Assembly: GCA_963736575.1 (NCBI GenBank)
Contig: CAVTPD010000001.1
Coordinates: 156,941-220,940 of the forward strand
Direction of reading: 5' to 3'
DNA: 64,000 nucleotides
Source of the DNA: an uncultured Cytophagales bacterium
GTDB taxonomy: Bacteria; Bacteroidota; Bacteroidia; Cytophagales; JAAEPT01
Within the stretch, counting starts at the first letter, position 1, and each line of letters begins with the position of its first letter. The translations under genes were made by a program, and so were the position numbers. This document shows, one piece after another, positions 11,885 to 50,682 of the stretch. The notes beneath the pieces were generated by a model. The model was not told where the DNA came from. It did not search any database and worked only from the letters and a program-made list of their open reading frames with translations.

Positions 11885-12964
11885 ATGAGTATCCACGCAC
11901 AAATCAGCCAGGAAGCACAAGAGCGCCTGGCACGCCAGAAACGGAATTCTACCATCACCTCGTTTCTAATGGCGGGGATGGTTATTGCACTGATTATGGT
12001 AACCTTGGGTGTTTTTCTTCTTCCAAATTTAGCGAAAGAGAATCCTACGATTGTGACCTACTCCGCATCCGCTCAGGAAGAGTCCCAGCAGGAATCGAAA
12101 AAGGTAAACACAAAGGTGCAGCGGAAACCCAGCGCCCCTTCAAGCACACAGGCACCGGTTATCGCTTCGACATCGCCGTCGGCGCTATCAATCCCGGTCC
12201 CCGAGGTCATGGCAGACGATCCGGCTGTGGAATTTGGCGATGGGGACGGCTTTGGTGGAGGCTGGGGTGAGGCAGATGATTTTAGCAAGGGAGGTGGTGC
12301 CAGCTTTTTCAATCAGAGCGTGACTGCGGAAAGAATCGCATACGTGATCGATTATTCCGCATCCATGAGGGGGGAAAAGGACGAGCTCATGCGCAACGAA
12401 CTTACGAAGTCTGTCGGTGGTCTCGCCCCGGGAACAAAGTATCAGATGATTTTCTTCTCGGGTCCGGCATGGGTTGCCGGGAGCGAGGTCGATGTTGAGA
12501 AGCAAAAGGGCAAGGGAGTCGTAACAGGCTCTGGCGGTCACAAATACGATTGGGAAGGTAAAGGAGCAGGCATGTGGGGACCAAAAGGGAAGAGGCAAGA
12601 GGTCGAGTGGCTGGATGTTTCCGGGAAAAACCTCAGAGAATCCAAAGAGATTATCGAAAAATCCGTTCTTGCATGGGGAACGGACTGGACCAACCCCTTG
12701 GAAATGGCTTTTGGTATGGATCCCGCACCACAGATCATCTTTTTCATGACCGATGGTCTGATGGGAGGTCGGGACACGATGGACATCACCCGTAGCCTCG
12801 CCTCGAAGGCAAAATCGAAGGGCATCGTCGTGAACTCAATCGCGCTGATGGAACCGAGAGCGGAAGAGGCGATGTATGAGCTTGCCGACCGCACGGGAGG
12901 TGTCTTCACCATCGTTGAAGAAGGCGGTAAATCACGCGAGGTGAAACGCGTCAGCAAGAAGTAG
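11885..12964 (+). CDS. membrane-anchored von Willebrand factor A (vWA) domain protein
   Basis: 359-aa ORF with an N-terminal TM helix (ITSFLMAGMVIALIMVTLGVFLL) and a vWA/MIDAS-like start (AYVIDYSASM) followed by an alpha/beta region. Confidence 0.7.
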   Translation: MSIHAQISQEAQERLARQKRNSTITSFLMAGMVIALIMVTLGVFLLPNLAKENPTIVTYSASAQEESQQESKKVNTKVQRKPSAPSSTQAPVIASTSPSALSIPVPEVMADDPAVEFGDGDGFGGGWGEADDFSKGGGASFFNQSVTAERIAYVIDYSASMRGEKDELMRNELTKSVGGLAPGTKYQMIFFSGPAWVAGSEVDVEKQKGKGVVTGSGGHKYDWEGKGAGMWGPKGKRQEVEWLDVSGKNLRESKEIIEKSVLAWGTDWTNPLEMAFGMDPAPQIIFFMTDGLMGGRDTMDITRSLASKAKSKGIVVNSIALMEPRAEEAMYELADRTGGVFTIVEEGGKSREVKRVSKK

Positions 12965-20483: not shown

Positions 20484-22371
20484 CTAACGGGCGCGGGTGG
20501 ATGAGCGACGCTTCAGGAAGAGGGCAAAGCCAAAGATAATCACCAGCAGGGGCATCACTGCGACATTCAGCAATGTGATGTTTCCGGCGAGCTTGTCCTT
20601 CTGGCGGCGCAGATCTTTTTCCTGACTACGGACGAGACGGGAGTATTCCACCTGTTGTTCGCGAAGCTTTCGGATCTCCGCCTCCTGCTCCGGCGAGAGA
20701 TATAGCTCGCTACCTTGCGACTTTTGCGCCTGCAGCTCCTGAAGCTTGATTTGCGCTTCCTCCTGCTTCTGCTGGAATTCATCGATTTTTCCGCCAACGT
20801 TCTTTTCGAACTCCGCTTCCATCTCCTGGACCACCGTGAAAGGCCGGCGGGTTGCGGCACGAGACCGGGATCCGATGAGATATTTGGAGCCGGTAGCCTG
20901 ATCGAGGAGGTTCATGAGAAATGCCGCGTTGCCGTTGGACGGGGTGGCCATCTGCATGCCGCCGAAGTTTTGCACGCTGTATGCGAAGCGGTCGTAGAAA
21001 GCGTCGATATCGGCGACAAGGAACACATTGCCAGCCTTCGAAGATTCCTTGATGGATTCCTCGTTCATCAGGTTTCTCTCCTGTGTCCTCAGCAGGCTGG
21101 TCCGCACCCGGCCTACCTTCCGGGAACGCGGTTTTGAAGTTTCCGGAGAGATGGGTGACAAGATCCAGAGGAGACCCTAGAGATTTCACCGAGGTATCCA
21201 GGGAGGGATCGAGACGAGAGGCTTTGACGGCATCAACGAAGCCCGCACTGGTGGATGAACGCATCAGGGAATTGGCCGAAACACCGCCCGTGCCGAGTTT
21301 TTTGAAAGCGCCTGGAAGATAAAATGTGACGGATTCGATGCCTTTCGTGACGATGTTGTCCTTCTGCGGCATCGCGCTTTGCGGGATGCTAAGGACCGCA
21401 ATGCCTTTGCGATCCCCTCCAAGCACCGTTGCATAAACAGGATCCGCGAGAACCTCTGTGGAGTTGAAATCGATCCCCCAGGAAGGGAGCAGCGTCGGCA
21501 GGGTGGAAGTTGTTGGAGAACCGCCGGGTTGGCCGGTCATGGGATTCGGCTGGCCGCCAAGCATCTGTGCGGAGACGGAAAAGGGGTCGAGACACGCGAC
21601 GACGGTTCCACCGCTAAGCAGGTATTGGTCGACCAGATATTCAGTTTCCGGCGTGATCTCAGCCGGATGGAAAAGAAGGAGGACCTTGATCTCATTCGCA
21701 TCGATTTTCTCAGGAGCCATGCCAAGGTCTTTCAGGTCGAAGCTCTGTTGAAGCTGCTGATAAATGACCCATGCCTGTTGGGACTGTTGGCCGGGCATCA
21801 TCGCCGGCTGACCCGCAAGATCGAGAGCTGACATTATCCCGATGACGGGTTTGACCGGAGTGGTGACTTCCGCAATCGCTTTGGAGATCTGGTATTCGAG
21901 CATCGTTTCCTCCGCCGGGTTGAGAAACGGAAGCACTACCTTCTTGTCGAGTGCGGAGACAGCCATGCCAAGGTAGAGATTGTCTCCGTTAATGTTCTGA
22001 CCGCTGAGGCCGTCCAGATTTGCGGAGTCCTCCGCATCCGTGTCGGGCTCGGGATCCAGGTTCTCCACGCGCAGCTTACCGTCGGCGAGGTTCGCATACT
22101 CCTTGAGAAGATCGTCGACACGCTTGATGTGCAGCTTTAGCTGTTCCGGCATGTAGTCGGTATTACGGGACGCATAGTAGCGTATCGTGACCGGTGTATC
22201 CAGCTCGCCAAGGATTGACTTGGTGCCGTCCGAAAGTGTGTGGATTTTGTTTTCCGTGAAGTCGGCGCCTCGATTTCCAAATGCGGTAAGAGAGACCAGC
22301 CAGTTTGCCAGGATGGCGATGGCGACTAGTGCGGCGATGCCAAGTGCGGCGCGGGTGAAAGGGGCTTTCAT
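20484..22371 (-). pseudogene. GldG-family ABC-transporter auxiliary protein, one frameshift as sequenced
   Basis: ORF 20779-22371 (TM anchor, then NRGADFTENKIHTLSDGTK...) loses sense near its end. The C-terminal part, including the coiled coil and final TM helix, is in ORF 20484-21161. Length is 1888 nt, i.e. 3n+1. Confidence 0.7.
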
Positions 22372-22413
22372 GAAACGATAAATTCTGATTTCGGGACTTC
22401 GATTGAGAAACGG

Positions 22414-23147
22414 TTACGCACGCTTCGCATTGAGGATCGTGGATGTGCCGAGGAGACAAAGGCCGATGAAGCTGGCGAACCAAACGAAGTCCTGTAGGCG
22501 GAAAAGGCCGCGGTTGAGGGAGCTGAAGTGGTCCCAGACCCCGAAGGATACGATGGCTTCGACCGTAGAGGATGAGGTGGCTTTGGCCAGCTCCCGCGTG
22601 AAATCATCATAGCCGCAAAGAACCATGATGGTGCATATGGTGACCGAAACGATGAGGCAGACCACCTGATCGCGCGTGCAGGCGGAGACAAGCATCGTGA
22701 TCGCCAAGGAAAGTGCAACAGACAAGAAACGATCCAATGTAGCCTGAGATTATCGCTCCATTGTCTGGGCTGCCGAGATAGTTCACCGTAATGACGATGG
22801 GAAATGTGAGCAATCAGTGCGACCAGGGTGACCGTGGAAGCTGCAAAAAATTTGCCGACGATGGCCGACCATGTGGAGACGGGAAAGGTGCCAAGCAACT
22901 CGATCGTGCCAGTGCGTTGCTCATCCGCCCAAAGTTTCATCCCGACCGCTGGGGCGATGAGCATGTAAAGCCATGGATGCCAAAAGAAAAACGAGTATTC
23001 CAGAGACGCGTCTCCGACTCTCATGAAATTTCCGAAGGTAAATGTGAAACCAAGGGAAAGAATCAAAAAGATGACGATGATCGCGTAGGCGGTCGGCTGC
23101 GAAAAATAGGATTTGAGCTCGCGGTTGTAGATGGTGAGGGAAGTCAT
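22414..23147 (-). pseudogene. ABC-2 type transporter permease (GldF-like), two frameshifts as sequenced
   Basis: Three fragments in three frames: 22368-23147 (N-terminal 110 aa sensible), 22607-22813 (FPIVITVNYLGSPDNGAIISGYIGSFLV) and 22414-22737 (C-terminal TM helices). Length is 734 nt, i.e. 3n+2. Confidence 0.7.
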
Positions 23148-24102: not shown

Positions 24103-25399
24103 TTATGCGGCGTCCGCATCGGCGTCCGGCTTTCGGCGGCGCAACGACGGGGATTTTTTACCCTCCACAACCTGACGATTGATGGTGACGCCCTCAATGT
24201 CGCCGCGTGACGGCACATCGAACATCACGTCGAGCATCAGTTTTTCGAAAATCGAACGGAGAGCCCGTGCACCGGTGCCGCGTTCCACGGCCATGTGGGC
24301 CATGGCGCGAAGTGCGTCCCGGGTTATGCGGAGCTTGACATTGTTCAATGCCAGTTGCTTCGAATATTGCTTAACCAGCGCGTTCTTCGGCTCGGTGAGA
24401 ATCTGAACCAGCTCGTCCTCGGTAAGTTTGCGAAGTGAGGAAATGACCGGGAGTCGACCGATGAATTCCGGAATTAGCCCAAAGTGGAGAAGATCCTCCG
24501 GGAGCACTTTTTCCAAGATCTTCGAGGTTTTTTCATCTTCCTCGTTTGGCCTGTTGTCGCTGTGGAATCCCAGGGTTTTGCTGCCGAGGCGGCGCTTCAC
24601 AATATCCTCAAGGCCGACGAATGCGCCGCCGCACACGAAGAGGATTTTCTCGGTGTTTACCTGGATGTATTCCTGCTGTGGGTGCTTGCGTCCGCCTTGT
24701 GGGGGCACGTTGCAAACGCTGCCTTCCAGGATCTTGAGAAGCGCCTGCTGGACGCCTTCCCCGGACACGTCACGGGTGATGGAGACGTTTTCGGTCTTTC
24801 GCCCGATCTTATCGATCTCATCAACATATATGATGCCGCGCTCGGCGCGCTCGACATCGAAGTCAGCTGCCTGAAGAAGACGGAGGACTATGTTTTCCAC
24901 GTCCTCGCCCACGTAGCCGGCCTCGGTAAGTGTGGTGGCATCAACGATACAGAAGGGGACGTCGAGAACTCGGGCCAGAGTGCGCGCAAGAAGAGTTTTT
25001 CCTGATCCGGTTGATCCCAGGAGAAGCACGTTGGACTTCTCGATCTCCACGTCCTTGAACTCTTCATCGAGCGGTGTCTCGTTCTGGTTGAGCCGGAGGT
25101 AGTGATTGTAAACCGGCGACGGCGAGGACACGCTTGGCGGTTTCCTGGCCGATCACATAGCTGTCCAGCTCGGCAAGAAGCTCCGCGGGTGTTGGGACAT
25201 CAGATTTTCCAAGAGACTTTGACTTACCCTTTTTGGAAGACTTTTCCGCAGGTGGATTCAGCTCTTTGATCAAAATGTTCGAGCAGACGTCGACGCATTC
25301 GTTGCAAATGTAAACGCCGGGTCCGGCGATGAGTTTCTTTACCTCGGAGTGGCTCTTTCCACAGAAAGAACACATGGTGAGATTGGAAGCGCGGGCCAT
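24103..25399 (-). pseudogene. clpX: ATP-dependent Clp protease ATP-binding subunit ClpX, one frameshift as sequenced
   Basis: Zinc-finger N-terminus ([26 protein letters not shown]) is in ORF 25064-25399. The AAA+ body ([23 protein letters not shown]) is in ORF 24103-25131. Removing one C of the CC at 25113-25114 restores KRVLAVAVYNHY. Length is 3n+1. Confidence 0.9.
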
Positions 25400-25447
25400 T
25401 TCTAATCTTTAAACTTTAATTTCCAAACTCCAACCAAGAAGCTCCGG

Positions 25448-26125
25448 TCAATCGGTTTTTTCAATCTCCGGGCGGACGGCGTCAGGGAGCTGTTTGCGGG
25501 ATTCCAGCACCTTGTCTACGAGACCGTAGGCGACGGATTCCTCCGCAGTCATGTAGTTGTCGCGGTCGGAATCGTTTTCAACTTCCTCGATCGTCTTGCC
25601 GGTGTGCTCGGCAAGGATTCCATTCAACCGCTTTTTCAGATTGAACATGAAGCCGATCGTCCGCTCCACATCGGATGCGGTGCCCTGTGCCCCACCGGAG
25701 ACCTGATGGATCATCACGTGGGAGTTCGGCAGGCAGAAGCGTTTTCCTTTTGTCCCGGCAGTGAGGAGGACGGAGCCCATGGAAGCACAGATGCCGATGC
25801 AGTAGGTATTCACATCGCAAGTAAGGAACTGCATGGTGTCATACATGGCCAGGCCGGCGGTGACCGAGCCACCGGGACTGTTGATGTAGATATGGATGTC
25901 CTTCTTCGGATCCTGCATTTGGAGAAATAGAAGCTGGGCGATGACCGAGTTCGCGACTCCATCATCGATAGCCGTTCCAATGAAAATGATGCGATCCTTC
26001 AGCAGGCGCGAGTAGATATCGAACGACCGCTCGCCGCGCGCATCGGATTCGATGACTACCGGGACGTAGTAATTGTTTTTCGGCGATTGTGCCGCCGGAC
26101 CATTGGAGGGTGGGAAAAGATTCAT
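25448..26125 (-). CDS. clpP: ATP-dependent Clp protease proteolytic subunit
   Basis: 225-aa ORF with [17 protein letters not shown] and GICASMGS (catalytic Ser) motifs. It sits in the canonical tig-clpP-clpX order. Confidence 0.95.
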
Positions 26126-26128
26126 GTG

Positions 26129-27470
26129 TTAGTCTGCAGGGGTTTCTTCGAGTTCCTCAGCGGAAACCTCCGTGACCTTCGCGTGTTCCAAAAGGAAGTC
26201 AATCGTCTGCCCGATCAGCATCGAATTCCGGATGGACTGGATCTGACGGTTTTTCTGCAAATCCTTGATCACTTTTTTGATCGGCTCCTTGCGTTGCTCG
26301 GCGATTCTTTGGATGTGCTGGAGCAGATCGCCATCGGATACTGAGATTTTTTCGGCGGCGGCGATCTCCTGCATGAGGAAATTCGTCCGGAGGTTCGTAT
26401 TGGCGCGCTGGGTGGCCACGGTGAAGATTTCTTCCTGCTTCTGGAGCATGTCCTCGTCGGACGCACCCTTTTTGCTCCCTTCCTCTACCAGCGCGTTGGC
26501 CTGGTTCTGTGTCTCGCGTTGGACGATATCGTCGGGGAGATCGAAACTTACGGCCTGATTCAGGTGCTCGACGATTTGGTTCACCTTGAACTCATTGATC
26601 TGCTTGAGCTTTTCGACACCCATGTTTTCGCGAAGCATGGCTTTGATTTCCTCAAGGGTTTTCCCGGGAACCAGCTTCTCTGCGAACGCATCGTCGATGT
26701 CCGGGTAGCTTCGCCTCCTTGATGCCCTCGATCGAGGTATGCAGAGTCATTTCCTTGCCGCGTAGTTCCTCAAATGGAAACTCGTCGTCCAGAGTGATCG
26801 TGACATCCTTCTTGTCGCCTTCGTTGAGACCCACGAGCTGCTCGGCGTAGCCGGGGAGAAACGCGCCCTCCTTGATCGGAAGCCAGTGGTTCTCGCGCTT
26901 CGCAAGATAGTTTCCTTTTTCACCGATCACATCCGTCAGCGGTTTGCCATCCACCGTGGTGGTGAAGTCCACAACCGCGATATCCTCATTCTGCAAAGGA
27001 CGGTCGGCAATGTCCTCAAATTCGGCAAGGCGTTCGCGTAAATTCTCAAGCTGCGCATCGAGCTCCTCCTCCGTGATCTCTGCCGACGGAGCCTTCACCT
27101 CGATGCCTTTGTATTCCGGAAGAGTGAATTCCGGCGCAAGGATCATCTTGGTTTCGAAAGCGATCGATCCGTCCGGGCGTTCGTTGAGATTGTCCGGAAA
27201 GCCGAAATCGAGCACCTTGAGATTTTCCTTCTCCAGGGCTTGGTCGCAGGCGTCGCCGAAAAGCGAATCGCGCAGTTCTTCGGAAATCTGTTTGCCGAAG
27301 CGCTTTTCAATGACCTTCTTCGGAGCCTTGCCCGGGCGGAAGCCTGGGATTTTCGCCTGTGACGCATACGTTGAGGCGATGGATTCACGCTTCGCCGCGA
27401 CATCGGAGGAAGGGACCTCCACACTGAGGGTTGCGAGGCATTTCGGCTGTTTTTCGACGACGATATTCAT
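26129..27470 (-). pseudogene. tig: trigger factor, one frameshift as sequenced
   Basis: The N-terminal and PPIase parts are in ORF 26652-27530 (MNIVVEKQPKCLATLSVEV... from the Met at 27470). The C-terminal part is in ORF 26129-26638. Removing one C of the CC at 26701-26702 restores KEAKLPDIDDAFAEKLVPGKTLEEIK. Length is 3n+1. Confidence 0.9.
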
Positions 27471-27582
27471 AAAAGTTCTGCGCTGGGGGAGGGAAAGTAG
27501 TGGCAGGATGCGGGATTTGGCAACTTTCAACTTTCAGCCGTCAAAATTGCCTCTGTGATCTCGCGGAAAATCTCCCATCCGC

Positions 27583-27835
27583 TTCAAAATCCCCGGGTGG
27601 TCGCTCCAAAACACCCGGGAATCCGTCCAAATCACCCGGTCGGGCATCTGAGCCCTCTGGCGACCGCTCCGAATCTTCCGGGAGCCTTTCAAAACCGCGC
27701 CTCAGTCCCGCCAAACCATCCGGTAACACCCCCAAAAACACGGAGAGGCCTTCAGAATCGCCCGGCAGCACCTCCAAATCGCGCGGTAACACGTAAAAAC
27801 CGTCCGGTAGTGTCTCCAAACCGCCCGGTAGCGCC
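27583..27835. repeat. tandem array of 12 degenerate 20-22-nt units (consensus about TCCAAAnCnnCCGGnnnnnnC)
   Basis: Units read directly from the sequence, e.g. tccaaaacacccgggaatccg, tccaaatcacccggtcgggca, tccaaatcgcgcggtaacacg, tccaaaccgcccggtagcgcc. The array lies in the tig / hypothetical-gene divergent intergenic region and is followed by an AT-rich tract at 27836-27955. Confidence 0.75.
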
Positions 27836-27955
27836 TGTTTTAAAAAACGCCGTTTAATCCCGCATCCATTGATAACGCAATAGTTACAAAAGCCGCGAAA
27901 AACCCATTCAAATGCTTGTTTACAAAAACTCCCGAAGGGATAGGAACCGGAAGCC

Positions 27956-28663
27956 ATGAGAGATGAATTTGCCAACCGCCATTCCATGCACCTCACCGTG
28001 CTCAACCTCCTCGACAAACCCGAATCCAAAGCCGTCTGGGAGGACAACAACCCAATTAAATTCACCGAAAGGGCCGGCGAATTCCGAACCAAGGTCACCG
28101 CCCTCACCGCCACCATCGCGGAAAAAACCAACATCATCACCGGCCAGGCCGCGGAAAAGGATCGCGAGGAAACCGAGCTTGAAGTCCTCGCCCAAGAGCT
28201 CGGCATCACCTTCGCCGAATACCTCGGCGACCAGGGCCGCGAGGGCGAGGCCGCCGAGTTCGAGCTCTCCCTCTCCAGATGGCAGGGCCTGCGCGATACC
28301 GCCCTCCTCGCCAAAGCCACCCTACTCAAGACCCGCCTCACCGCCGCCCTCGCCGCAGACGCACCCGGCCTTGCGGAATACGGCATCACCCCCGCCGATC
28401 TCACCCTCCACACCAAGGAGCTCGCCGACTACGAAAAAGTCATCCAGAACCCCTCCGGAGCCATCGCCACCCGCAAGGCCCTCACCGCCGCCCTCCGCCC
28501 GGACTTCCGCGAAGTGCTCAACATCCTCCTCTCCATGGACCGCCTCGTCCTCCGCTTCCGCGGCACCCCCGAAGGCAAGGCCTTCGCCGCCAACTGGAAA
28601 ACCGCCCGCGCCGTCCGCGACCTCGGCAGCAACAACCCCGACCCCGAGCCTCCCACACCGTGA
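27956..28663 (+). CDS. hypothetical protein (acidic, predicted all-alpha), strongly C-ending codon usage
   Basis: 235-aa ORF with a consistent codon pattern; 25 of 40 sampled codons end in C. The overlapping P/S/T-rich ORFs in other frames look like shadows. I recognise no family. Confidence 0.55.
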   Translation: MRDEFANRHSMHLTVLNLLDKPESKAVWEDNNPIKFTERAGEFRTKVTALTATIAEKTNIITGQAAEKDREETELEVLAQELGITFAEYLGDQGREGEAAEFELSLSRWQGLRDTALLAKATLLKTRLTAALAADAPGLAEYGITPADLTLHTKELADYEKVIQNPSGAIATRKALTAALRPDFREVLNILLSMDRLVLRFRGTPEGKAFAANWKTARAVRDLGSNNPDPEPPTP

Positions 28664-28673
28664 ACGCGCAAGC

Positions 28674-28759
28674 CTATGGAGAAGGGGTTTGAAACCCCTT
28701 TGCAGAGGACGGGGAAACCACTTGCCCAGTGAAAGGGGTTACAAACCCCTTCTCCATAC
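28674..28759. repeat. nested palindromic element (two inverted 27-nt arms, each containing its own hairpin)
   Basis: tatggagaaggggtttgaaaccccttt (28675-28701) and its near-perfect reverse complement aaaggggttacaaaccccttctccata (28732-28758). Each arm contains an AAGGGGTT/AACCCCTT hairpin. It starts 11 nt after the stop of the hypothetical gene and may act as a bidirectional terminator. Confidence 0.7.
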
Positions 28760-30522
28760 TGGAAATCCGGATCCCGACCGAAACCCCACTCCCCCATTGA
28801 CACCACCCCCCCTTTTCCCCACTTTCCCGAATGAAAATTCCGCCCCACACATCAGCGAGCGTTGATGCCATGGACATTGTTCGGGAAGAAAAAAAACTAT
28901 GGCTACCTCATCGACTGGAATGTTCCGCCCAAGAGATGCAATGCGAACTTCGGTGAACGACTACGACAACGGAGAAGAAGACATTCCGCTGTGCTTGGGA
29001 CATGGGAGGGCACCCCCAGATCACGCGAGTCGATGGACCGGGTGTCGTGAGTTGGTCGACGACCGAGAAGGGCAATGATATCTAGTTTCCAATCACATGG
29101 CAACTTTGACGAAGCTGGACAACTTCCCTTCGAACGGAATCGAAATCCCTGCCTCGATCTATCACACGCGCAACCTTACGGAGCAACGAGTAGAGCCGGA
29201 ACGGGGATCCAAGGTATCAATAAGGATGCTCTGGAACAGCCGCCCTGTTTCTTCATCGCCGAAACACAAACCAATCTAGCACAATACGCTCCATTGCGGA
29301 GTGGAAGACAACACCTTCTTTGACGTGGATTACCTTCGCCGCTCGCATCGAGCAATGTTTTCCAAGAAACCTCAGAATCACGCTAACTATGAGTAGCAGA
29401 ACTCTCAGAATCGAGAAATATTGCGCATGACGCACTTTGAAAGAGCGTGTAGCTCTAGATCCTCGTAAAGGTTGATCACATGCGTTCAACGACACGTTCG
29501 CTCTTCTTAGCGAACGGCTGGATGATCAAAGATCTACTATGAATCTTTCAGAGAGAATTTCGCATTGGTATCAACACGGAATGACGATGCACATTTGACG
29601 CCGCTATCCAGCAGCGCCATTCATGAAACTTTCTGTAGAAGAGGGGATCCCCCAGAACTGTCAAAGCGCACTTTCAGCAGAAAGCCCACCGGAGAACTTG
29701 AGAGGCTTTGCGACTTGCGAAATCGAGATATTGGATAGGCTCACGGAGGATTACGATTTTTCGAACATAACTCTCGCATTCAAGAAGGGGAGCTCGATGC
29801 GTTGTTCAGCGCGTCATGCCAAATTCGCATGAGGTTCTAAAAACGGTGACGCGTAGAATCGACATGTTCATAGTGATTACGACAGCCAGCACTCGGTGAG
29901 CGCCTCATTGCCCATAAAAGAACAGTGGATGGCCTCACCTATGTTGAGCACATGTCGCGGAAGGATGCATGCCCTCTGCTTGAGGAAGGGAGTTGTAGCG
30001 TCTATAAGGTCAAGCCTTTGGTTGCAGAAGGCACCAGTCTGAGAGGCACCTAAGAAAGAGTCCACCAAGAAAAAAAGAACGCGAACAAGGCGTCGCTCCT
30101 AACGCCTGACCCGCCGCGAATTCCAGCCGTCATGATCGCTACACCCACTGCAGTCGAAGCCTCGCTCCCAGTCAGGCGTAGGAGGACTTCGACGTTACTC
30201 AAAAAATGAATCCAAAATTACTACGCATGGTTGGGCAGATCATTCTCAGACCCCAGAGGACAACTATTTAGATTCTGGTCTACCGGGATTGGACACAACC
30301 AGCTTTCTCGTCAGTCCGTGCGAAGGTGAAGGTTATTTGGGGACGCTTACGTTTCAAGTTGGGCTCGATTGGGCTTCGATCACTGCGGATATGAGCAGGC
30401 ACGGCAGTTTGGGAAGTCTTATAGAACCAGCGAATTCGCGATCGATGGAGCGCGGAAGAGGGCCTTGATTATACGAAGAAAGCTGTGGTGGAACCAAGAG
30501 CCCGCGGGAGCAAGGTGCCTTT

Positions 30523-30711
30523 TCAATCCGGGAAGACGATGGCGCGGTGGCCGTCGATGATGGTGCGGTCGTGGACGTGGTAGCGGATGCCGCGGGCGAG
30601 GGCGGCGCGCTCGCAGTGGCGGCCGAGGCGGGCGAGGTCGTTGGGGGAGTGGAAGTGGGAGACGCGCTCGACTTCCTGCTCGATGATGGGGCCGGCATCG
30701 AGATCCGCGGT
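30523..30711 (-). pseudogene. orphan 3'-terminal fragment of purU (duplicate of 31761-31949)
   Basis: 189 nt identical to the 3' end of the intact purU except for two synonymous mismatches (30526, 30532). It encodes ...TADLDAGPIIEQEVERVSHFHSPNDLARLGRHCERAALARGIRYHVHDRTIIDGHRAIVFPD*. Confidence 0.9.
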
Positions 30712-30785
30712 CGGTGACACCATTGACACTTTTCGGCAGGGAATCCCGGACTTGCGACGCTTCCCCGATTCGCTATCCTTCCGCC

Positions 30786-30992
30786 ATGCAAGTTCAAGCC
30801 ACAGTCGAAGATCCAACCCATTTACGGCTCATCAAGCCATTGGATGTGACTGTAGGAAGTGTGGTCGTTCTCGAGATTGTGGACACGGTCGGGAACGGGA
30901 CTTTCCCGGATTCTTCCGCCGCTCTCCTGGATTCCGCCTACGGAGCCGAGGAGCCGGACTACTCGGGATCAGGAACAGCGATTGAAAATTGA
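30786..30992 (+). CDS. putative antitoxin of the adjacent PemK/MazF-family toxin
   Basis: 68 aa from the ATG at 30786 (MQVQATVEDPTHLRLIKPLDVTVGSVVVLEIVD...EEPDYS). Its stop directly abuts the toxin start (30992/30993). It is small with an acidic C-terminus, as in MazE/DUF104-like antitoxins. Confidence 0.5.
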   Translation: MQVQATVEDPTHLRLIKPLDVTVGSVVVLEIVDTVGNGTFPDSSAALLDSAYGAEEPDYSGSGTAIEN

Positions 30993-31340
30993 GTGATGCT
31001 TTCGGAAGGTGATCTTATTGTGGCCGAACTGCCCCAGGCAGACGGTGGAACCAAGCCACGCCCGGTCCTACTGCTCAAAGAGTTGCCAGGATTCGGAGAT
31101 TTTTTAGTCTGCGGAGTCAGTTCCCAGATCCATCAGGCGCAGGATGGTTTTGATCGGATTATCGCATCCACCGACGATTTTTTTGACGCTACGGGACTCC
31201 AGGTCACCTCCGTAGTCCGACTGAATTTTCTCGCGACGCTGCCCACCCGACGAATGACCAGGCATCTCGGGCGAATCCCGTTCCACGTTCTTGGCGGCTT
31301 ACAATCCACGTTGGCCGCGCACCTTACACAAACAAAGTAG
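30993..31340 (+). CDS. type II toxin-antitoxin system PemK/MazF-family toxin
   Basis: 115-aa ORF. GDLIVAELPQADGGTKPRPVLLLKELPGFGDFLVCGVSSQ...SVVRLNFLATL matches the PemK/MazF fold signature. The start is GTG 30993 or ATG 30996. Confidence 0.75.
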   Translation: MMLSEGDLIVAELPQADGGTKPRPVLLLKELPGFGDFLVCGVSSQIHQAQDGFDRIIASTDDFFDATGLQVTSVVRLNFLATLPTRRMTRHLGRIPFHVLGGLQSTLAAHLTQTK

Positions 31341-31760
31341 GAGGACAGGATTCTGCGTTGAAGGCGCGGTGGCAAACCGGCGGTTCCTGAGTCAGGGCAA
31401 TAAAGCCAGGGAAAGATTGAAACAGCGTGTGCCTCTTGAGTCCCGGCAGGGACGATCAGAAAGTAGCCGGGGGTGGAGTGAAACGGAACCCCCGGACACA
31501 TCCCGCAACGGATTTACGGGCAAGGGATGGATGCCGCCACCTGTTCCGCCCCCGCCGCAGCCCGCCAACGGCACGGCAGGTTTGCGGCTTCGGCGGTGCG
31601 CGTAGGGTAACGGGGCCTGCCGCTTGCCGCCATGATCCATGCACTGGTTACCCCGCATTCCGCTGCGCTGCATACGGGGCTACGCTCTTGCCACCCCTCC
31701 GGGGTTAACTGGTGTTTCCGTTGGGGTGGGCGGAAGGATTCCGCCTCTCCTTGAGGGGGA
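31341..31760 (+). ncRNA. candidate structured RNA / recombination scaffold (unclassified GC-rich ORF-free segment)
   Basis: G+C is 71/100 by hand count at 31501-31600. Seven perfect 5-7-bp GC-rich helices are packed into 420 nt (coordinates in findings). There is no credible ORF. The strand assignment is tentative. Confidence 0.3.
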
Positions 31761-32618
31761 TCAGTCCGGAAAGACGATGGCGCGGTGGCCGTCGATGATG
31801 GTGCGGTCGTGGACGTGGTAGCGGATGCCGCGGGCGAGGGCGGCGCGCTCGCAGTGGCGGCCGAGGCGGGCGAGGTCGTTGGGGGAGTGGAAGTGGGAGA
31901 CGCGCTCGACTTCCTGCTCGATGATGGGGCCGGCATCGAGATCCGCGGTGACGTAGTGGCAGGTGGCGCCGATGAGTTTCACGCCGCGCTCGTGGGCCTG
32001 GCGGTAGGGGTTCGCGCCGATGAAGGCGGGGAGGAAGGAGTGGTGGATGTTGATGATTTTCCCGGAGAACTCCTGGCAGAAGCCGTCCGGCAGGATCTGC
32101 ATGAAGCGGGCGAGGACGATGAGCTCGACGTCCTGGGCGAGGAGGAGATCGCGGATTTCGGAAAAGCCTTTTTCGCGCAGCGGGCCGTCCATCTCGATGT
32201 GGTGGAAGGGGAGGCCGGCGCGTTTGGCGATGTGGGCGCAGTTGTCGCGGTTCCCGATGAGGGAGGTGATCTCGATGGGGAGCTCGCCGAGCTCGGTGCG
32301 GAGGAGGATTTCGTTGAGGCAGTGGTCGGTCTTTGTGACGAGGACGGCGGTGCGCATTTTATAAGGCAGCTCGCGGAAGTGCCAGGTGGCGCCGAGGGAG
32401 CGGCCGAGGGTGCCGAAGCCGGTTTTGAAATCCTCGACGGTGACATCGAGTCCGGAGGTATCGATCTCGAGGCGGGCGAAGAATTTTTTCCCGATCTGGT
32501 CGGAAAACTGGCTGAACTCGGTGAGGTTTCCCTGATGGGCGGCGACGTAGGAGGCGATTTTCGCGACGATGCCGGACTGGTCGGGAGAGGATAGCTTGAG
32601 GATTAGGCCGGGGCGCAT
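31761..32618 (-). CDS. purU: formyltetrahydrofolate deformylase
   Basis: ACT-like N-terminus (MRPGLILKLSSPDQSGIVAKIASYV) plus a formyl-transferase core (INIHHSFLPAF...HYVTADLDAGPIIEQ). The ORF extends to 32672, but the Met at 32618 is the likely start. Confidence 0.9.
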   Translation of the reverse strand: MRPGLILKLSSPDQSGIVAKIASYVAAHQGNLTEFSQFSDQIGKKFFARLEIDTSGLDVTVEDFKTGFGTLGRSLGATWHFRELPYKMRTAVLVTKTDHCLNEILLRTELGELPIEITSLIGNRDNCAHIAKRAGLPFHHIEMDGPLREKGFSEIRDLLLAQDVELIVLARFMQILPDGFCQEFSGKIINIHHSFLPAFIGANPYRQAHERGVKLIGATCHYVTADLDAGPIIEQEVERVSHFHSPNDLARLGRHCERAALARGIRYHVHDRTIIDGHRAIVFPD

Positions 32619-37007: not shown

Positions 37008-38730
37008 AGCAAAGCCGCAAAAACTATGCAGGCACCTTTGGACCCACCGTGGGCGATCAGGTGCGCCTGGCCGATACGGAGCTTTTCATCGAGGTCGAGC
37101 GCGACCTCGTCGCGGAAGGCGGAGGTTATGGAAACGAGGTGAAATTCGGTGGTGGCAAAGTGATCCGTGACGGCATGGCGCAATCGCCTCTCGCTCTTGA
37201 TGCCGATTCTCTCGATCTGGTTCTTACAAATGCCCTGATTCTGGATGCCGCCCACGGCGTGATCAAAGCGGATATCGGAATCAAAGGCGGTCGGATCGTC
37301 GGCGATGGGCCATGCGGGAAATCCGCTTCTTGCAGGACGGAATCACTATGACGATCGGCGCCGCGACCGAAGTCATCGCAGCGGAAGGTTGTATCGTCAC
37401 GGCAGGCGGAATCGACTCGCACATTCATTTCATCTGCCCGCAGCAGATCGAGCACGCGATGGCCAGCGGTGTGACGACCATGCTCGGCGGAGGCACCGGT
37501 CCCGCCCATGGCACTTACGCCACGACATGTACTCCTGGAAAATGGAACATTCACCGCATGCTGGAGGCGGCGGAAGCTTTCCCGATGAACCTTGGATTTC
37601 TCGGAAAAGGAAACTGCTCCACCACGAGCCTCTGCGCGAGCAGGTCCTTGCCGGCGCGATGGGTCTGAAGCTCCACGAGGACTGGGGCACCACTCCGGCG
37701 GCGATCGACTCCTGCCTGACTGTCGCCGACGAGCTTGATGTCCAGGTCGCGATCCATACGGACACTCTCAACGAAGCCGGCTTTCTGGAAAGTACGCTTC
37801 GATGCATTCAAAGGCCGGACAATTCACACGTATCATTCCGAAGGCGCGGGTGGCGGTCACGCGCCCGATATCATCAAGGTCTGCGGCGAGGCGAACGTCC
37901 TCCCATCCTCTACGAACCCGACTCGCCCGTTCACAACGAACACGATCGCCGAGCATCTCGACATGCTGATGGTCTGCCACCACCTTGATTCGCGTATCCC
38001 GGAGGATGTCGCGTTCGCGGAAAGCCGCATTCGTCCGGAAACGATTGCCGCAGAGGATTTGCTTCATGACATGGGTGCGATTTCCATGATGTCCAGCGAT
38101 AGCCAGGCGATGGGCCGGGTCGGTGAGGTCATCACCCGCACCTGGCAGACCGCGCACAAGATGAAGGTTCAGTTCGGGAAACTGGAAAGCGAGACCCACA
38201 CCGCCGCCGACAATTTTCGCGCTCTCCGCTATGTTTCGAAATATACGATCTGCCCTGCGACCACCCACGGCATCGCTCACGAAGTCGGCAGTCTGGAGGT
38301 CGGGAAACTCGCGGACATCGTCATCTGGAAGCCGGCGTTTTTCGGAGTGAAACCGGAAACGATCATCAAGGGAGGCTTCATCGCGTGGGCGAATATGGGA
38401 GACCCGAACGCATCCATTCCCGACTCCGCAGCCTACGATTTACCGCCCACAATTCGGAGCATTCGGCAGGTCCATTGCCACTACGTCGCTCACCTTCGTC
38501 AGTGCCGCCTCACTGGCATCGGGCGGCTTGGATTCCCTTGGTTTGCAAAAACGCCTTTCCGCCGTGAAACATTGCCGCACGGTCTCGAAGCGTGATCTGA
38601 TGTTTCAATGACGCGCTGCCGGATATCACCGTCGATCCCGAGACCTACACCGTCGTCGCCGATGGTCGCGAGTTGCGCTGCGAGCCGCTTTCCGACCCTG
38701 CCGATGGCGCAGCGATATTTTCTCTTCTGA
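37004..38730 (+). pseudogene. ureC: urease subunit alpha, about 6 frameshifts as sequenced
   Basis: Conserved blocks occur in order across changing frames: [55 protein letters not shown]. Removing one C of the CCC at 38696-38698 restores the C-terminus ...LSDLPMAQRYFLF*. Confidence 0.9.
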
Positions 38731-43724: not shown

Positions 43725-43762
43725 TTCTCTAAGACCATTGTTGAGTTGGTGAGCCGGAAAGA

Positions 43763-45028
43763 TCAGGCCTTGGTCTGGCCTTTTCCGCGGACGCGGTACT
43801 GGTAGCTGGTGAGCTCGCGGAGACCCATCGGGCCGCGGGCGTGGAGCTTGTCGGTGGAGATGCCGATCTCGGCGCCGAAGCCGAATTCGCCGCCGTCGGC
43901 GAAGCGGGTGGAGACGTTGTGCATGACGCAGGCGGAATCGACGGCGTGGAGGAATTTTTCCGCCTCGGCATCGTCGGTGGTGACGATGCAGTCGGTGTGG
44001 TGGGAGCCGTAGGTGTTGATGTGGGAGATGGCGGCTTCCATGTCAGGGACGATTTTGATGGAGAGGATTTTCTCGAGATACTCGGTGGACCAGTCTTCCT
44101 CGGTGGCGGGGATGAGATCGGGGAGGATGGCGAGGCTTTCGGCGCAGCCGCGCAGCTCGACTTCTTTGGCGCGGAGGGCGGCGGCGACTTTGGGGAGAAA
44201 TTCCGCGGCGATGGATTCCTGGATGAGGAGGGTTTCGAGGGCGTTGCAGACGCCGGGCTTCTGGGTTTTGGAATCGACGGTGAGTTTCGACGGCCATTTC
44301 CAGGTCGGCTTTTTCGGAGACGTAGATGTGGCAGATGCCGTCGTAGTGCTTGATGACGGGCATGCGGGCGAGGGAGACGACGGTCTCGATGAGGCCTTTC
44401 CCGCCGCGCGGGATGATGAGGTCGAGCCATTGGTCCATGCCTGCCATGGCGGCGACGGATTTCGCGGTCGGTGAAGGGGATGAGCTGGATGGCGTGCTCG
44501 GGAAGGCCGGCTTTTTTCCCGCCGGCATCGAGGGCGGCGGCGATGGCGCGGTTCGAGTGGATGGCCTCGGAGCCGCCGCGCAGAATGGTGGCGTTGCCGG
44601 TTTTAAAACAAAGGGCGGCGGCGTCGGCGGTGACGTTGGGGCGGCTTTCGTAGATGATGCCGATGGTGCCGATGGGGACGCGGACTTGCTCGATGCGGAT
44701 GCCGTTGGGGCGGTCCCAGTCATCGAGGACCTGGCCGACCGGATCGGGAAGGGTGGCGACGTGTTCCAGGGCGGCGGCGATGGCTTCGAGTCGCGCCTCG
44801 TCGAGCCGCAGGCGGTCGAGCATGGCGGTGGAGAGGCCTTTTGCTTCGCCGGCGAGGATGTCCTTGTAGTTTTCGGAGATGATTTCCGCGGAGGCGTCGC
44901 GGAGACCCTTGCGCCATGGCGACGAGAATGGCGTTCTTCTTTTCCGTGGTGAGCTGGGACAGGCGATGGGCGGCGGCACGTGCCTGGCTGCCCATTTCGT
45001 GGATCTGTTCGGTGATGGAATCGGACAT
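43763..45028 (-). pseudogene. proA: glutamate-5-semialdehyde dehydrogenase, at least 3-4 frameshifts as sequenced
   Basis: N-terminus [23 protein letters not shown] (ORF 44720-45028). The middle, [39 protein letters not shown], is in the frame of ORF 43729-44979. The C-terminus, [15 protein letters not shown]...[11 protein letters not shown], is in ORF 43763-44041. The span is 1266 nt, or 422 codons. Confidence 0.9.
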
Positions 45029-45928: not shown

Positions 45929-47606
45929 ATGAAATCCACGATCCTGCTCCTTCTCGCGATCATTGTTTCCTTCATCGCACCAGTCTCAGCCGCTGGAGGC
46001 TCACGGCCCGGAACCCGCCTATCCCGGAGCTGTCCGATGGCAGCACCCAGTACGCGGCTTTCCCGAAGCCGAAGGAAACATACAGCCAGGCCGAGGGCGG
46101 ATTGATCGAAACGCTCGAAATCCAGAGCTGCGGAGGATCCTTTCAATATCGCGGCGACCGTTATTTTCCTTCTGGCGATCTGCCACACCTTCGCCGCAGC
46201 CAGCTCGAACAAGCTGGCGCACCACTACGAGCACGTCCATGAGGAGAACTCTGAGCACGCGCGGGTCCCCGCGACAAGGAGCATCCGGACGGCGAGCCGG
46301 AGGTTTCTTTCCGGGCGACGATGTTCCATTTCCTCGGCGAGGTGGAGGCGATTTTCGGGATCTGGGTTATCGCGCTGGCGGCAGCCGCTTCTTATTTCTA
46401 TAGTTGGCATGACTTCGAGGTCTATCTGAACAAGGACAAGGTCTTCACCGAGCCACTCTTCGTGGTGGTAATCATGGCGATCGCCGCCAGCCGTCCGGTC
46501 CTGCGTTTCGCCGAGGGAGTGATGGGTCTTGTGGCTTCCTTGGGAAAAGGACACGCCGGCCGCGTGGTGGCTGAGCGTGCTCATCGTTGCGCCGATTCTT
46601 GGATCGTTCATCACCGAGCCGGCCGCGATGACGATCGCCGCCATGTTGCTTGCGAAAAAATTCTACCGTTTGAATCCGGAGCCGCTGCTCGCCTACGGGA
46701 CGATCGGGTTGCTTTTCGTGAACATTTCCGTTGGCGGCACGCTGACCCATTTCGCCGCGCCCCCGGTCCTGATGGTTGCCTCGACGTGGGATTGGGGAAC
46801 CCTTTTCATGCTCGAGCATTTCGGCTGGAAAGCGGTCGTTGGCGTCATCATTTCGAGCTCGCTGTACTTCCTTTTCTTTCAGCAAGGCACTGTTCCGCAT
46901 TGCCGACATGGCGGACGGAGTCGAGGACGGCCAGCTCAACCCGAAGTCCTGGCAGGAGCGCGAAACGCCGATTCCCGCCTGGGTCACCGGCACGCACCTC
47001 GGTTTCCTGGCGTGGACTGTTTATACGGCACACTACCCGGTCCTGTTCGTCGGCGGCTTCCTGTTTTTCCTCGCCTTCGTAATGGCCACCCGCCACCACC
47101 AGAACGCGGTGAATATGAAAAGCCCGATGCTTGTCGGATTCTTCCTCGCGGGACTCGTGATCCACGGCGGCGTGCAGGGATGGTGGATCGCTCCGATCAT
47201 CCAGACGCTTCCGGACCAGGCGCTCATGCTCGGCGCGACCATCCTGACCGCATTCAACGACAATGCGGCGATCACCTACCTGGCCTCCCAGGTGGACGGG
47301 ATTTCCTTCAGCGCAAAGCACGCGGTTGTTGCCGGTGCGGTGACCGGTGGCGGTCTGACGGTGATTGCGAACGCTCCGAATCCGGCCGGGCAAAGCATCC
47401 TTTCGAAATACTTCGAAGGTGGTGTTTCTCCGCTCAAACTGTTCCTCGGCGCTCTGATCCCGACCATCATCGTTTATCTCTGCTTCGTGATTCTTCCAGA
47501 CGGTCCTGCTCCGGAAAATGTAATCAAGCATGGAGGAATGGAGCAACAGAGGAGGCCGAAGCACGGCCCGAAGGCACTGGGGACATTCCCGAGGCTCCGG
47601 ACGTAG
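45929..47606 (+). pseudogene. polytopic membrane protein resembling the putative Na+/H+ antiporter (DUF1504-type) family, several frameshifts as sequenced
   Basis: Signal/TM start MKSTILLLLAIIVSFIAPVSA at 45929. Hydrophobic segments are spread over ORFs 46321-47082, 46529-47611 and 46776-47606 (e.g. FHFLGEVEAIFGIWVIALAA, LGSFITEPAAMTIAAMLLA, NDNAAITYLA). Family recall is uncertain and the end is approximate. Confidence 0.45.
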
Positions 47607-47655
47607 ATTGAACGTTTGACAATGCTCCACAGCCAGACTTCGGCAAAAGATCCTT

Positions 47656-48776: not shown

Positions 48777-49603
48777 GCAGTCCGGCTGTCTTGCGAATTT
48801 TCCTCCGGCATTTCCTCGACCGTCTCCTCCGTAGGCGGATCAGTCACCACGGTTTCAGTGTGCGTTTCACTCACCTGATCGACCACCTCCACCTTTGCGA
48901 CCTTCTTCTCTTCTGACATGGGGAAACCCTGTCCAATCGTGTGGCCGTCTGTCAACAGCCGGGCGTATTCAGCCGAGGAGTTGCGAAAAACTCCTCGGAC
49001 TGTCGAACAAGATAGGTCGGCTTGGATTTCTTGAAGGGACTCGCGTGAATTGAAACCCCAGGAGACTGCGGCATGCGGTATCCTGGCCTTTTGCGCTGCC
49101 TTCATGTCGCGGATCTCATCGCCGATGTAGAGCATCTCGTCGTTCTTGAGGGAAAAGGTCTTCCGGATCGCCCGCAGGTGTCTCGCCTTGCCGGTCAGCT
49201 TCGAAGTGGAGGAGACAAAGCCGAATTGATCGCGGATGCCGTGGTTTCTCAGAAAGACATCAACATTGGCCGTGGAATTGGAGGTAAGGATGCCGAAGTT
49301 TTCGACATGCTCACGCAATCCCGATGATCGCTTCGCGCATTCCATCGATTAGTTCAAGGCGCCCGATGTTCGCTCTCATCATTCCCGTCCCCCGCGCGAT
49401 GATCGAAGGGCACCCGGCGCTTGGGGATTTCGAGCTCGGCGAGGATCTGCTTCAGAGAGAGATGCCGCAAGTTTCGCGATCTCCTCTTCTCCGACCTGGC
49501 GGATCCCGTAGTCAGGGGCCAGCTCGTTGAAAATTTTTCTCGTTTCACCGAGGGTATCCGCAATCGTTCCGTCGAAGTCAAAAACCAGCGCCCGATATTT
49601 CAT
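48773..49603 (-). pseudogene. HAD-superfamily hydrolase (phosphoglycolate-phosphatase-like) with acidic C-terminal tail, two frameshifts as sequenced
   Basis: Motif I, MKYRALVFDFDGTIADT, from the Met at 49603. The later motifs (ILTSNS..., YIGDEIRDMKAA) are in ORF 48773-49345. The stop overlaps the start of the next gene (ATGA at 48773-48776). Confidence 0.65.
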
Positions 49604-49663
49604 CCGCGGGAAATCTGCCCGGCTTGTCAGCCGACTGCCAGCCAAAATCTGCCCAAAGCCGGC

Positions 49664-50682
49664 TCATAGGGAAAGGTTCGGATCGATGTCCCCATCGAGA
49701 CCATCCGCTTTTCCTGCGAAAAACCTCAGCAAACCCGCGAAGGCAATCATCGCGGCATTGTCGGTGCAGACCTCCGCATCGGCTATGGAGAGTTCCAAGC
49801 CCTCCCTTGCAGCAGCGCTCGGCGAAGGCTTTCCTAACGACTTGGTTCAAGCTGACACCGCCGGAAAGTCCGACCTTTTCCACCCGGACTGCCTTCGCCG
49901 CACGTATGGTTTTTTCCACGAGAACCTCAACGACCGCCAACTGAAAGGACGCCGCAATATCTTCGACCGATGCCGCTTTGTTTTTTTGCAAGGTATACAG
50001 CACAGCCGTCTTCAGTCCGGAAAAAGAAAAATCCAGCTCGCCACCACCCATCATCGATCTCGGAAATGAAAAGGCCGTGGGATCGCCATCTTTTGCGGCC
50101 TTCTCGATCTCCGGCCCGCCAGGGTAGGGAAGGCCAAGCATTTTTCCCACCTTGTCGAAGGCCTCGCCAGCGGCATCGTCCCGGGTGGTTCCGAGCCGTT
50201 TGTAGTCTCCCGCCCCGCTAACCTCCATGAGCAGAGTGTGCCCTCCGGAAACGACCAGGCCCACATGCCGCGGAACTTCCGTCCTGTCCATGAAGGGCGA
50301 TAGCAGAGTGCCCTTCGAGATGATTCACTCCCACGAAAGGCTTTCCGGAAACACAAGACATCGCCTTCGCCGCCGTGCTGCCGACAAGCAATGAAGATGC
50401 AAGCCCCGGACCCATCGTCGCGCCAAAGACATCGATATCCGCCATACCCGCCTCTGCCGCAGCCAACGCATCCTCCACCAGACCGGATAAACACAGCGAA
50501 TGACTGCGGGATGCCAGCTCCGGCACGACTCCGCCATGCTCACGATGTTGTTCGATCTGTGATGCGATTACTGACGCGAGAATCCGCGTCGGCTCTCCCT
50601 CGTCACCGCGCAGAATCGCCACCGCTGTTTCATCACAGGAACTTTCTATTGCAAGGAACACCGCCACGCGGGGATGTTCCAT
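49664..50682 (-). pseudogene. tsaD: tRNA N6-adenosine threonylcarbamoyltransferase TsaD, at least 2-3 frameshifts as sequenced
   Basis: LAIESSCDETAVAIL...HREHGGVVPELASRSH...VNHLEGH (ORF 50218-50718), then VVSGGHTLL...DDAAGEAFDKVGKMLGLPYPGGP (ORF 49578-50291), ending ...DIDPNLSL* with the TGA at 49666-49664. Confidence 0.9.

Follow-up and report, generated by a model that had tools for sequence, protein, structure and literature searches.

How did the end of a purU gene come to stand on both sides of a small toxin-antitoxin (TA) pair? The question is raised by the 64,000-nt stretch of contig CAVTPD010000001.1 analyzed here (the window), in which an intact gene for formyltetrahydrofolate deformylase (purU) is followed by an insert of 1,049 nt (30712-31760) and then by a second copy of its own last 189 nt. 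A preliminary description of this DNA, made from the sequence alone, had proposed that the two copies may be attachment (att) sites of an unusual, non-autonomous element, possibly served by a recombinase acting in trans. Comparison with related loci indicates that, instead of a new non-autonomous integrative element, the locus is a long-standing scar at a hot spot of recombination. The repeat is, in the reading that we favor with a probability of roughly 0.55, what remains of an old insertion with long target duplication that needed no dedicated recombinase and was produced by homology-anchored illegitimate recombination. The features on which the argument draws are as follows.

27531-31760, no strand: variable island of ~4.2 kb between the tig start and the purU stop
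30523-30711, minus strand: orphan purU end (left copy of the repeat), 62 codons and a stop
30712-30785, plus strand: junction and presumed promoter of the TA operon, 74 nt
30786-30992, plus strand: putative antitoxin, 68 aa, directly upstream of the toxin; the same pair lies at another locus in contigs L007-L012
30996-31340, plus strand: MazF/PemK-type toxin, 114 aa (PF02452, E=1.6e-9), with an alternative GTG start at 30993
31341-31760, no strand: spacer between mazF and purU, 420 nt, no recognisable gene
31367-31745, no strand: lineage-specific non-coding segment of ~390 nt; homology to contigs L001-L006 ends at 31366
31761-31949, minus strand: true purU 3' end (right copy of the repeat)
31761-32618, minus strand: intact purU, 285 aa, with ACT and Formyl_trans_N domains

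The copies at 30523-30711 and 31761-31949 are one 189-nt sequence repeated at an offset of 1238, and the identity breaks off abruptly at both edges. Self-comparison of the window and reading of the codons confirmed that they differ by only two mismatches (30526/31764 and 30532/31770), both synonymous, as GTC TTT CCG GAC TGA in the intact gene corresponds to GTC TTC CCG GAT TGA in the orphan, and both within the last 12 nt of the repeat. The open reading frames (ORFs) and domain matches agree that the right copy is the end of the intact gene and the left copy an orphan of its last 62 amino acids. No further copies of the repeat or the insert were found within the 64-kb window. The PurU protein of the window has 98% amino-acid identity to that of a verrucomicrobial metagenome-assembled genome (MAG; locus L013), which was reached by a purU scan of species-representative genomes, and 88% to that of Luteolibacter sp. 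AS25; exact look-ups of the window MazF and PurU matched no record.

That this geometry represents DNA inserted behind purU, with the duplicated gene end on either side, was borne out by relatives with a single purU end. Alignment of purU loci revealed an empty site in three of them: in Luteolibacter sp. AS25 (L014; complete genome), purU is followed by ~100 nt and then tig-clpP; in a metagenome contig (L182), by ~190 nt and then tig-clpP-clpX; and in L016, a GntR-type regulator gene abuts purU, with the same regulator type located to the left of the cassettes in L001 and L002. Window positions 25001-27536 align with L014 9514-6961, and the purU of L014 ends at 6858. Because tig lies directly behind purU in L014 and L182, the whole of 27531-31760 in the window is variable DNA, and comparison with these relatives places the orphan, not the live end, at the original gene end.

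The arrangement is shared by other genomes. Six metagenome contigs reached via toxin homologues (L001-L006; toxin 93% identical) contain the orphan, the same junction and the same two genes, followed by intact purU, with only 41 nt between the toxin gene and the purU stop versus 420 nt in the window, and L013 carries the orphan, the TA pair and the long spacer. The same junction in L013 and L001-L006 means that the duplication is old; judged from these alignments, the orphan-TA-purU layout would predate the split of lineages whose purU genes are 15% apart in nucleotides, and a recent event is therefore not supported. An assembly artefact, either a mis-join or a collapsed or expanded repeat, might be suspected since many genes in the window look frameshifted and the assembly evidently has errors. 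However, at least seven contigs that were assembled independently, from different samples and with different assemblers, show the layout, and the recurrence of the same junctions in these assemblies (L001-L006 and L013) effectively excludes this explanation.

The similarity of the two copies says little about their age. Copies within one genome are 95.6-98.9% identical, whereas orthologous copies from different lineages are 87-92% identical (between the window and L002, 89.4% for the orphans and 91.0% for the intact ends). The orphans of L001-L006 have a 9-nt in-frame deletion and are 95.6-96.7% identical to the live end over 180 aligned nt. In an alignment of all copies, lineage-specific substitutions are common to both copies in a genome, which points to concerted evolution, that is, gene conversion, as the source of their near-identity. 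The window and L013 are alike in that their intact copies end in TTTCCGGACTGA and their orphans in TTCCCGGATTGA. The two mismatches had been taken as a sign that the copies differ in origin; given the concerted evolution, their position at the edge and the same endings in L013, they would rather be old edge differences spared by conversion. Near-identical repeats are accordingly no proof of a recent event.

What lies between the copies fits the earlier identification of a two-gene module of the PemK/MazF type, as the PF02452 match (spanning 5-110 of the 115 aa of the toxin) is accompanied by a conserved small ORF upstream. Homologues up to 93% identical to the toxin carry the source name mRNA interferase MazF. 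The antitoxin ORF stops at 30992 and the toxin starts at 30993 or 30996; the 68-aa ORF matched no family in Pfam, NCBIfam or PADLOC, and a simple scan of 30712-30785 detected no sigma-70 consensus promoter. The 68-aa and 112/114-aa genes are kept together in L001-L012 at two different loci. From the toxin fold and the conserved upstream small gene, the pair is predicted to be a type II TA system of the MazEF/PemIK type, whose structural marks it bears. In L007-L012 (e.g., L007 1749-3003), an antitoxin/MazF pair with 79% nucleotide identity is located at an unrelated locus, beside relB/yafQ and without a purU fragment, which indicates that the TA operon itself has moved between loci.

The remainder of the insert has a different history. 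L013 has a counterpart of 31341-31719 (L013 7893-8275, 94.5% identical), whereas the final ~55 nt before the purU stop are present in the window only and not in L013. Of the earlier account of this spacer as a GC-rich, ORF-free segment of 420 nt, the length and the non-coding character stood, but it is only modestly GC-rich (0.57-0.68 versus 0.60-0.72 in purU) and not literally ORF-free, as it contains several ORFs of 60-140 aa. It nevertheless behaves as non-coding because there is no codon-position bias and no significant protein homologue in any frame among 8000 candidates, with seven ORF translations joined for the search. The proposal that it is structured was not supported: fold energies are no better than those of shuffles (z-scores of 0.34 and -0.96 for the two strands) and Rfam gave no match at E<=1 over 30300-32000.

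The ~390-nt segment within the spacer appears to be a separate, later addition in the lineage of the window and L013. Because it is absent from L001-L006 and was added later, the 1.05-kb insert would not be the single element that it had been taken for; the orphan, the junction and the TA pair are shared with L001-L006, and the segment only with L013. No other copy of it was found in the 64 kb of this genome, the fetched loci or the plasmid and phage collections, apart from the L013 orthologue. A repetitive extragenic palindromic (REP) element or a miniature inverted-repeat transposable element was considered and rejected: there is one REP-like hairpin only (31651-31684, ending in GGGGCTAC), with no other copies and no match to a curated RNA family. 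Purifying selection was likewise rejected. The ~4% divergence of the segment from L013 is paralleled by 5% third-position divergence in the adjacent mazF, and selection on the segment thus cannot be claimed, as the regional history explains the low divergence equally well.

The purU end has received DNA more than once, and the breakpoints differ. L013 has three purU ends in series, namely the intact gene, a 92-nt fragment and a 189-nt fragment, with an unannotated cassette of two ORFs (67 and 158 aa), neither of which matched a Pfam or NCBIfam family, between purU and the 92-nt fragment. In Luteolibacter marinus NBU1238 (L019), a gene for a PEP-CTERM protein lies between purU and a 106-nt fragment; in L179, a vapC-type gene lies between purU and a ~96-nt fragment, followed by another TA pair; and in L173, a 135-nt fragment is followed by the tRNA-Ser that is native downstream of purU in L017, L018 and L021. 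L176-178 have a 189-nt fragment within a restriction/defence island, with restriction-modification (RM) genes beside the orphan, which begins at codon 224/225 as the window orphan does, although the cargo is unrelated. PADLOC and NCBIfam scans of the cargo ORFs were informative only for VapC (L179) and the PEP-CTERM protein (L019). A protein search with the orphan ORF yielded further chimeras with other breakpoints. No purU duplicates were observed in more distant Akkermansiaceae or in the other fetched purU loci (mostly from Streptomyces and Proteobacteria), and a metagenome purU scan returned none with a duplication among the matches listed, all of which were at <=81% identity. Taken together, these loci suggest that the purU end is a recurrent insertion hot spot in Luteolibacter-like Verrucomicrobia, with varied breakpoints and cargo.

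Several further observations concern the same gene end. Short purU proteins of 113 aa and 143 aa were examined as candidate long orphans and rejected, since L180 proved to be a frameshifted gene and L181 and L182 contig-end truncations. L183 (8001-8456) encodes a purU remnant of 151 aa whose ACT domain (residues 1-89) is joined directly to IADLDAGPII..., precisely the point at which the 189-nt orphan starts; a deletion that extended from the middle of purU to the orphan junction seems to have occurred, and purU would then be dispensable or inactivated in that genome. A vapBC pair lies just to the left of the orphan in some contigs of the L001 lineage (L001, L002, L003 and L005; L002 8890-9527), flanked by a long hairpin (L002 ~8610-8790), and is absent in 83UuOncV; its presence or absence appears to be a further cassette polymorphism at the purU hot spot. 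In L013, a ~75-nt sequence is located at the 3' ends of three cassettes (6886-6959, 9130-9208 and 10127-10205), two of them directly after purU copies, and another organism has it in a TA-rich locus (L007 1172-1236). The sequence might act as a terminator or as a recombination site, or it might be DNA from downstream of purU that was duplicated.

The part of the island beyond the orphan contains the following features, some of which recur at other cassettes.

27956-28663, plus strand: conserved hypothetical gene, 235 aa, with 91% nucleotide identity to L013 11320-12027
28675-28758, no strand: terminator-like inverted repeat after the 235-aa gene, with 27-nt arms that are 96% complementary
28774-28891, no strand: "boundary" sequence with a TTGACA-like motif, 83% identical to L013 7615-7732
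28892-30522, no strand: ORF-poor stretch of 1.6 kb, with stops throughout all six frames

The boundary sequence recurs at the distal ends of two L013 cassettes, and an overlapping stretch (28760-28825) is 85% identical to L013 11161-11225. Substitutions between the 235-aa gene and its L013 counterpart fall mostly at the third codon position (26/10/7), and the gene has no significant Pfam, NCBIfam or PADLOC family. The ORF-poor stretch has no credible BLAST match in L013 or the other fetched loci; its final 19 nt (30504-30522) are similar to the spacer that follows intact purU in L001-L006. A six-frame Pfam search of 28760-30530 for recombinase pseudogenes found nothing at E<=1. Between tig and the 235-aa gene there is a 21-nt tandem repeat of 3.7 copies (27759-27836), of which L013 has a longer array (~12150-12450).

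The junctions themselves bear on how the DNA was joined. In the window, the cassette end ...CAATGGTGTCACCG is joined to ACCGCGGATC, while intact purU reads ...CACTACGTCACCGCGGATC; the sequence cggtgac (30712-30718) repeats purU sequence (GTCACCG), giving a microhomology of 4-7 nt and a 4-nt duplication of ACCG. At the 92-nt junction of L013, a 28-nt patch identical to the interior of the 235-aa gene lies between the boundary sequence and the purU fragment. Both junctions have the appearance of illegitimate joining and not of a defined crossover core. The same features could be taken to favor an intragenomic origin, in which a replication template switch or a microhomology-mediated tandem duplication copied the purU end and the DNA downstream of it, after which one copy had its content replaced or lost by decay: the window junction has its microhomology and 4-nt duplication, the L013 patch looks templated, and downstream segments of ~75-110 nt are repeated in L013. 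Such an origin is rather doubtful, as the two copies are followed by unrelated sequences in both the window and L019, so that an extra replacement step would be needed each time. In addition, the boundary of the proximal L013 cassette is only 78-83% identical to the other copy in that genome, which suggests a foreign donor, and the TA pair is also found at an unrelated locus in other organisms.

Further evidence for exchange lies inside purU. In pairwise comparisons of the window, L002 and L179, third-codon-position divergence drops from 33-42% to 13-15% at about codon 157, and the divergence of the TA genes (13-17%) matches that of purU downstream of this point; no such step is seen against the cassette-free L014. 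Most simply, the cassette region and the 3' part of purU may have arrived as one import, through homologous recombination in which the crossover fell within purU. In a separate observation, contigs L181 (1-470) and L182 (1-455) begin 23-38 nt upstream of an internal methionine that is 143 codons from the purU stop, and at least eight protein clusters from the orphan-ORF search are exactly 143 aa, a position near the step at about codon 157. Strain-level mosaicism that breaks assemblies near this codon would fit.

Whether a dedicated recombinase could have been involved was addressed by comparing the longest non-overlapping ORFs of at least 90 aa of the whole window with Pfam. No integrase, transposase, resolvase, reverse transcriptase or relaxase family was found among these ORFs, in agreement with the preliminary description; the families present are housekeeping and other non-mobility families. 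In the fetched metagenome contexts, the Pfam families recorded for the called genes include no integrase, transposase or resolvase, and the few ORFs scanned in L013 and L019 included no recombinase family.

These results bear on the proposal of site-specific integration, according to which the locus is a decayed or non-autonomous remnant similar to a cis-mobilizable element (CIME), with the purU ends as attL and attR and a tyrosine or serine recombinase encoded elsewhere. In their classic geometry, such elements place foreign DNA between directly repeated gene 3' ends, the serial stacking in L013 resembles tandem accretion at one att site, and the L013 repeats run ~110 nt beyond the stop codon. 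The window and L176 share the 189-nt breakpoint with unrelated cargo, and the change-point at about codon 157 is common to three pairwise comparisons. Nevertheless, we regard site-specific integration as improbable: independent events break at ~92, 96, 106, 135 and 189 nt, the differing cargos have no core or element-end sequence in common, and the junction sequences are unrelated. An integrase was found neither in the 64-kb window nor among the families recorded for the related contexts, the purU site yielded no larger autonomous relative, and blastn of the insert against the plasmid and phage collections gave no match. Integron-like attC cassettes were also rejected, given the variable boundaries and the lack of an integrase.

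Homology-anchored illegitimate recombination, by comparison, fits the variable breakpoints, the junction features, the recurrence at one gene end, the divergence step and the lack of an integrase. DNA with a mazEF-type operon would have been joined behind purU, with one side pairing homologously with purU and the other making an illegitimate, microhomology-level join within the last 189 nt of the resident gene; equivalently, a circularised fragment with a purU end could have integrated by a single crossover. The product would be an intact purU, the imported DNA and the displaced original gene end as an orphan, for which host recombination functions would suffice, with no dedicated recombinase. 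Gene conversion would afterwards have kept the orphan nearly identical to the live end, lineages would have exchanged the cassette region through homologous recombination, with a crossover in purU, and the ~390-nt non-coding segment would have been added beside the purU stop in the lineage of the window and L013. The TA pair may protect itself against loss through repeat recombination.

Several points weigh against this reading. The mechanism is read from scars, with no donor and recipient pair for the original event, and we know of no natural competence in these bacteria. The orphans of L176-178 and the window start at the same codon with unrelated cargo, which could mean a preferred or specific breakpoint, and the change-point at about codon 157 in all three pairwise comparisons could mark a defined element end. 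Homology-facilitated illegitimate recombination also usually replaces recipient DNA and does not duplicate it.

A bolder and more tentative idea, which we put well short of even odds, is that the purU 3' end of Luteolibacter-like Verrucomicrobia serves as a recombinase-free docking site, where addiction or defence cassettes armed with purU ends are captured serially, looped out as circles and re-inserted elsewhere. If so, docking cassettes would re-insert into the naive purU of other species by host homologous recombination alone, and the TA pair would shield its cassette from repeat-mediated loss. The locus would then be a natural instance of the "virus-like life cycle" hypothesised by Kobayashi's group for RM units.

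Other features of the window lie outside the island. It contains no tRNA or tmRNA genes, and its only Rfam match at the gathering score, 5_ureB_sRNA (65.6 bits; 37166-37456, minus strand), falls within the urease cluster and probably reflects urease coding conservation, not a small RNA. The tig gene (26129-27530) is split into two ORFs, one with the N-terminal and FKBP domains and the other with the C-terminal domain. Six further ORFs look frameshifted or truncated.

43729-44979, 20779-22371, 22368-23147, 46529-47611, 49578-50291 and 24103-25131, no strand: frameshifted- or truncated-looking ORFs (proA-like, gldG-like, ABC-2 permease, Na+/H+ antiporter, tsaD and clpX)

The Na+/H+ antiporter matches profile positions 111-223 of 419 only, and clpX is without its zinc-finger N-terminus. 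Together, the split and truncated genes suggest either indel errors of a long-read assembly or widespread pseudogenes.

Several known systems resemble the purU locus in part. Chromosomal hot spots hold horizontally acquired genes between core genes, and the content between purU and its neighbor (tig, a regulator, tRNA-Ser or hrpA) varies widely in the same manner, while the divergence step in purU suggests turnover through recombination in flanking core genes. Ordinary hot-spot turnover differs in that no gene ends are duplicated by a double crossover. Small, integrase-less DNA between directly repeated gene 3' ends, with tandem arrays at one site, is likewise known from CIMEs and from tandem accretion at att sites, as at the 3' end of fda in Streptococcus thermophilus. 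However, CIMEs have defined att cores that are read by the integrase of a related element, whereas the breakpoints here are variable and neither an integrase nor a parental element was found. No recombinase was found in the 64 kb or is on record for the related loci, although one may be encoded elsewhere in the genome, and no att core or element end was constant, with the start at codon 224/225 in the window and L176 as the one exception. When a small cassette is flanked by a long duplicated gene end, this alone does not indicate an att site or a new integrative element.

Homology-facilitated illegitimate recombination and insertion-duplication by single crossover of circular DNA are known from studies of natural transformation. 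The purU locus shares with the former one homologous anchor (purU), one illegitimate join with little or no microhomology, and no dedicated recombinase, and a circular single crossover would duplicate the homologous segment exactly as seen here. It differs in that the linear form usually replaces DNA and the process at purU is inferred from scars. To our knowledge, homology-facilitated illegitimate recombination has never been demonstrated in these organisms.

The closest described counterpart is the insertion of RM units with long target duplication, in which long, variable duplications are accompanied by no mobility genes and by empty sites in relatives (PMC2853133; PMC3874152). This phenomenon was described in 2000 (Nobusato et al., 2000, cited in PMC3874152) and surveyed in 2010 (Furuta, Abe and Kobayashi; PMC2853133), mostly involves naturally competent species, and its mechanism is still treated as unresolved (PMC2853133; PMC3874152). 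By the measures of the 2010 survey (PMC2853133), the window has flanking direct repeats longer than 30 bp (189 nt) and a target that is single-copy in the empty-site loci L014, L182 and L016, the insert is shorter than 20 kb (1,049 nt) with no linked mobility genes found, and the duplication length varies between events, unlike in site-specific recombination. The cargo is a MazF/PemK pair and not an RM unit, with RM genes only in the L176-178 relative; RM cargo defines that screen (PMC2853133), however, and not the type of rearrangement. In both cases, a small selfish or addiction-type unit has its target duplicated directly over tens to hundreds of bp, the duplication length varies, there is no transposase or integrase, empty sites exist, and the repeats often overlap a gene 3' end. 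The purU locus differs in its cargo, which is a type II TA pair here and a vapC-type gene, a PEP-CTERM gene or defence genes in relatives, in the many independent, stacked events at one gene end, and in its host phylum (a verrucomicrobium), as well as in a duplication that is old and homogenised by gene conversion. It thereby extends the phenomenon to TA cargo, to a different host phylum and to one gene end hit several times independently, and the stacked events, together with filled (Luteolibacter marinus NBU1238, 106 nt) and empty (AS25) sites in cultured relatives, make the mechanism more testable here than in isolated cases.

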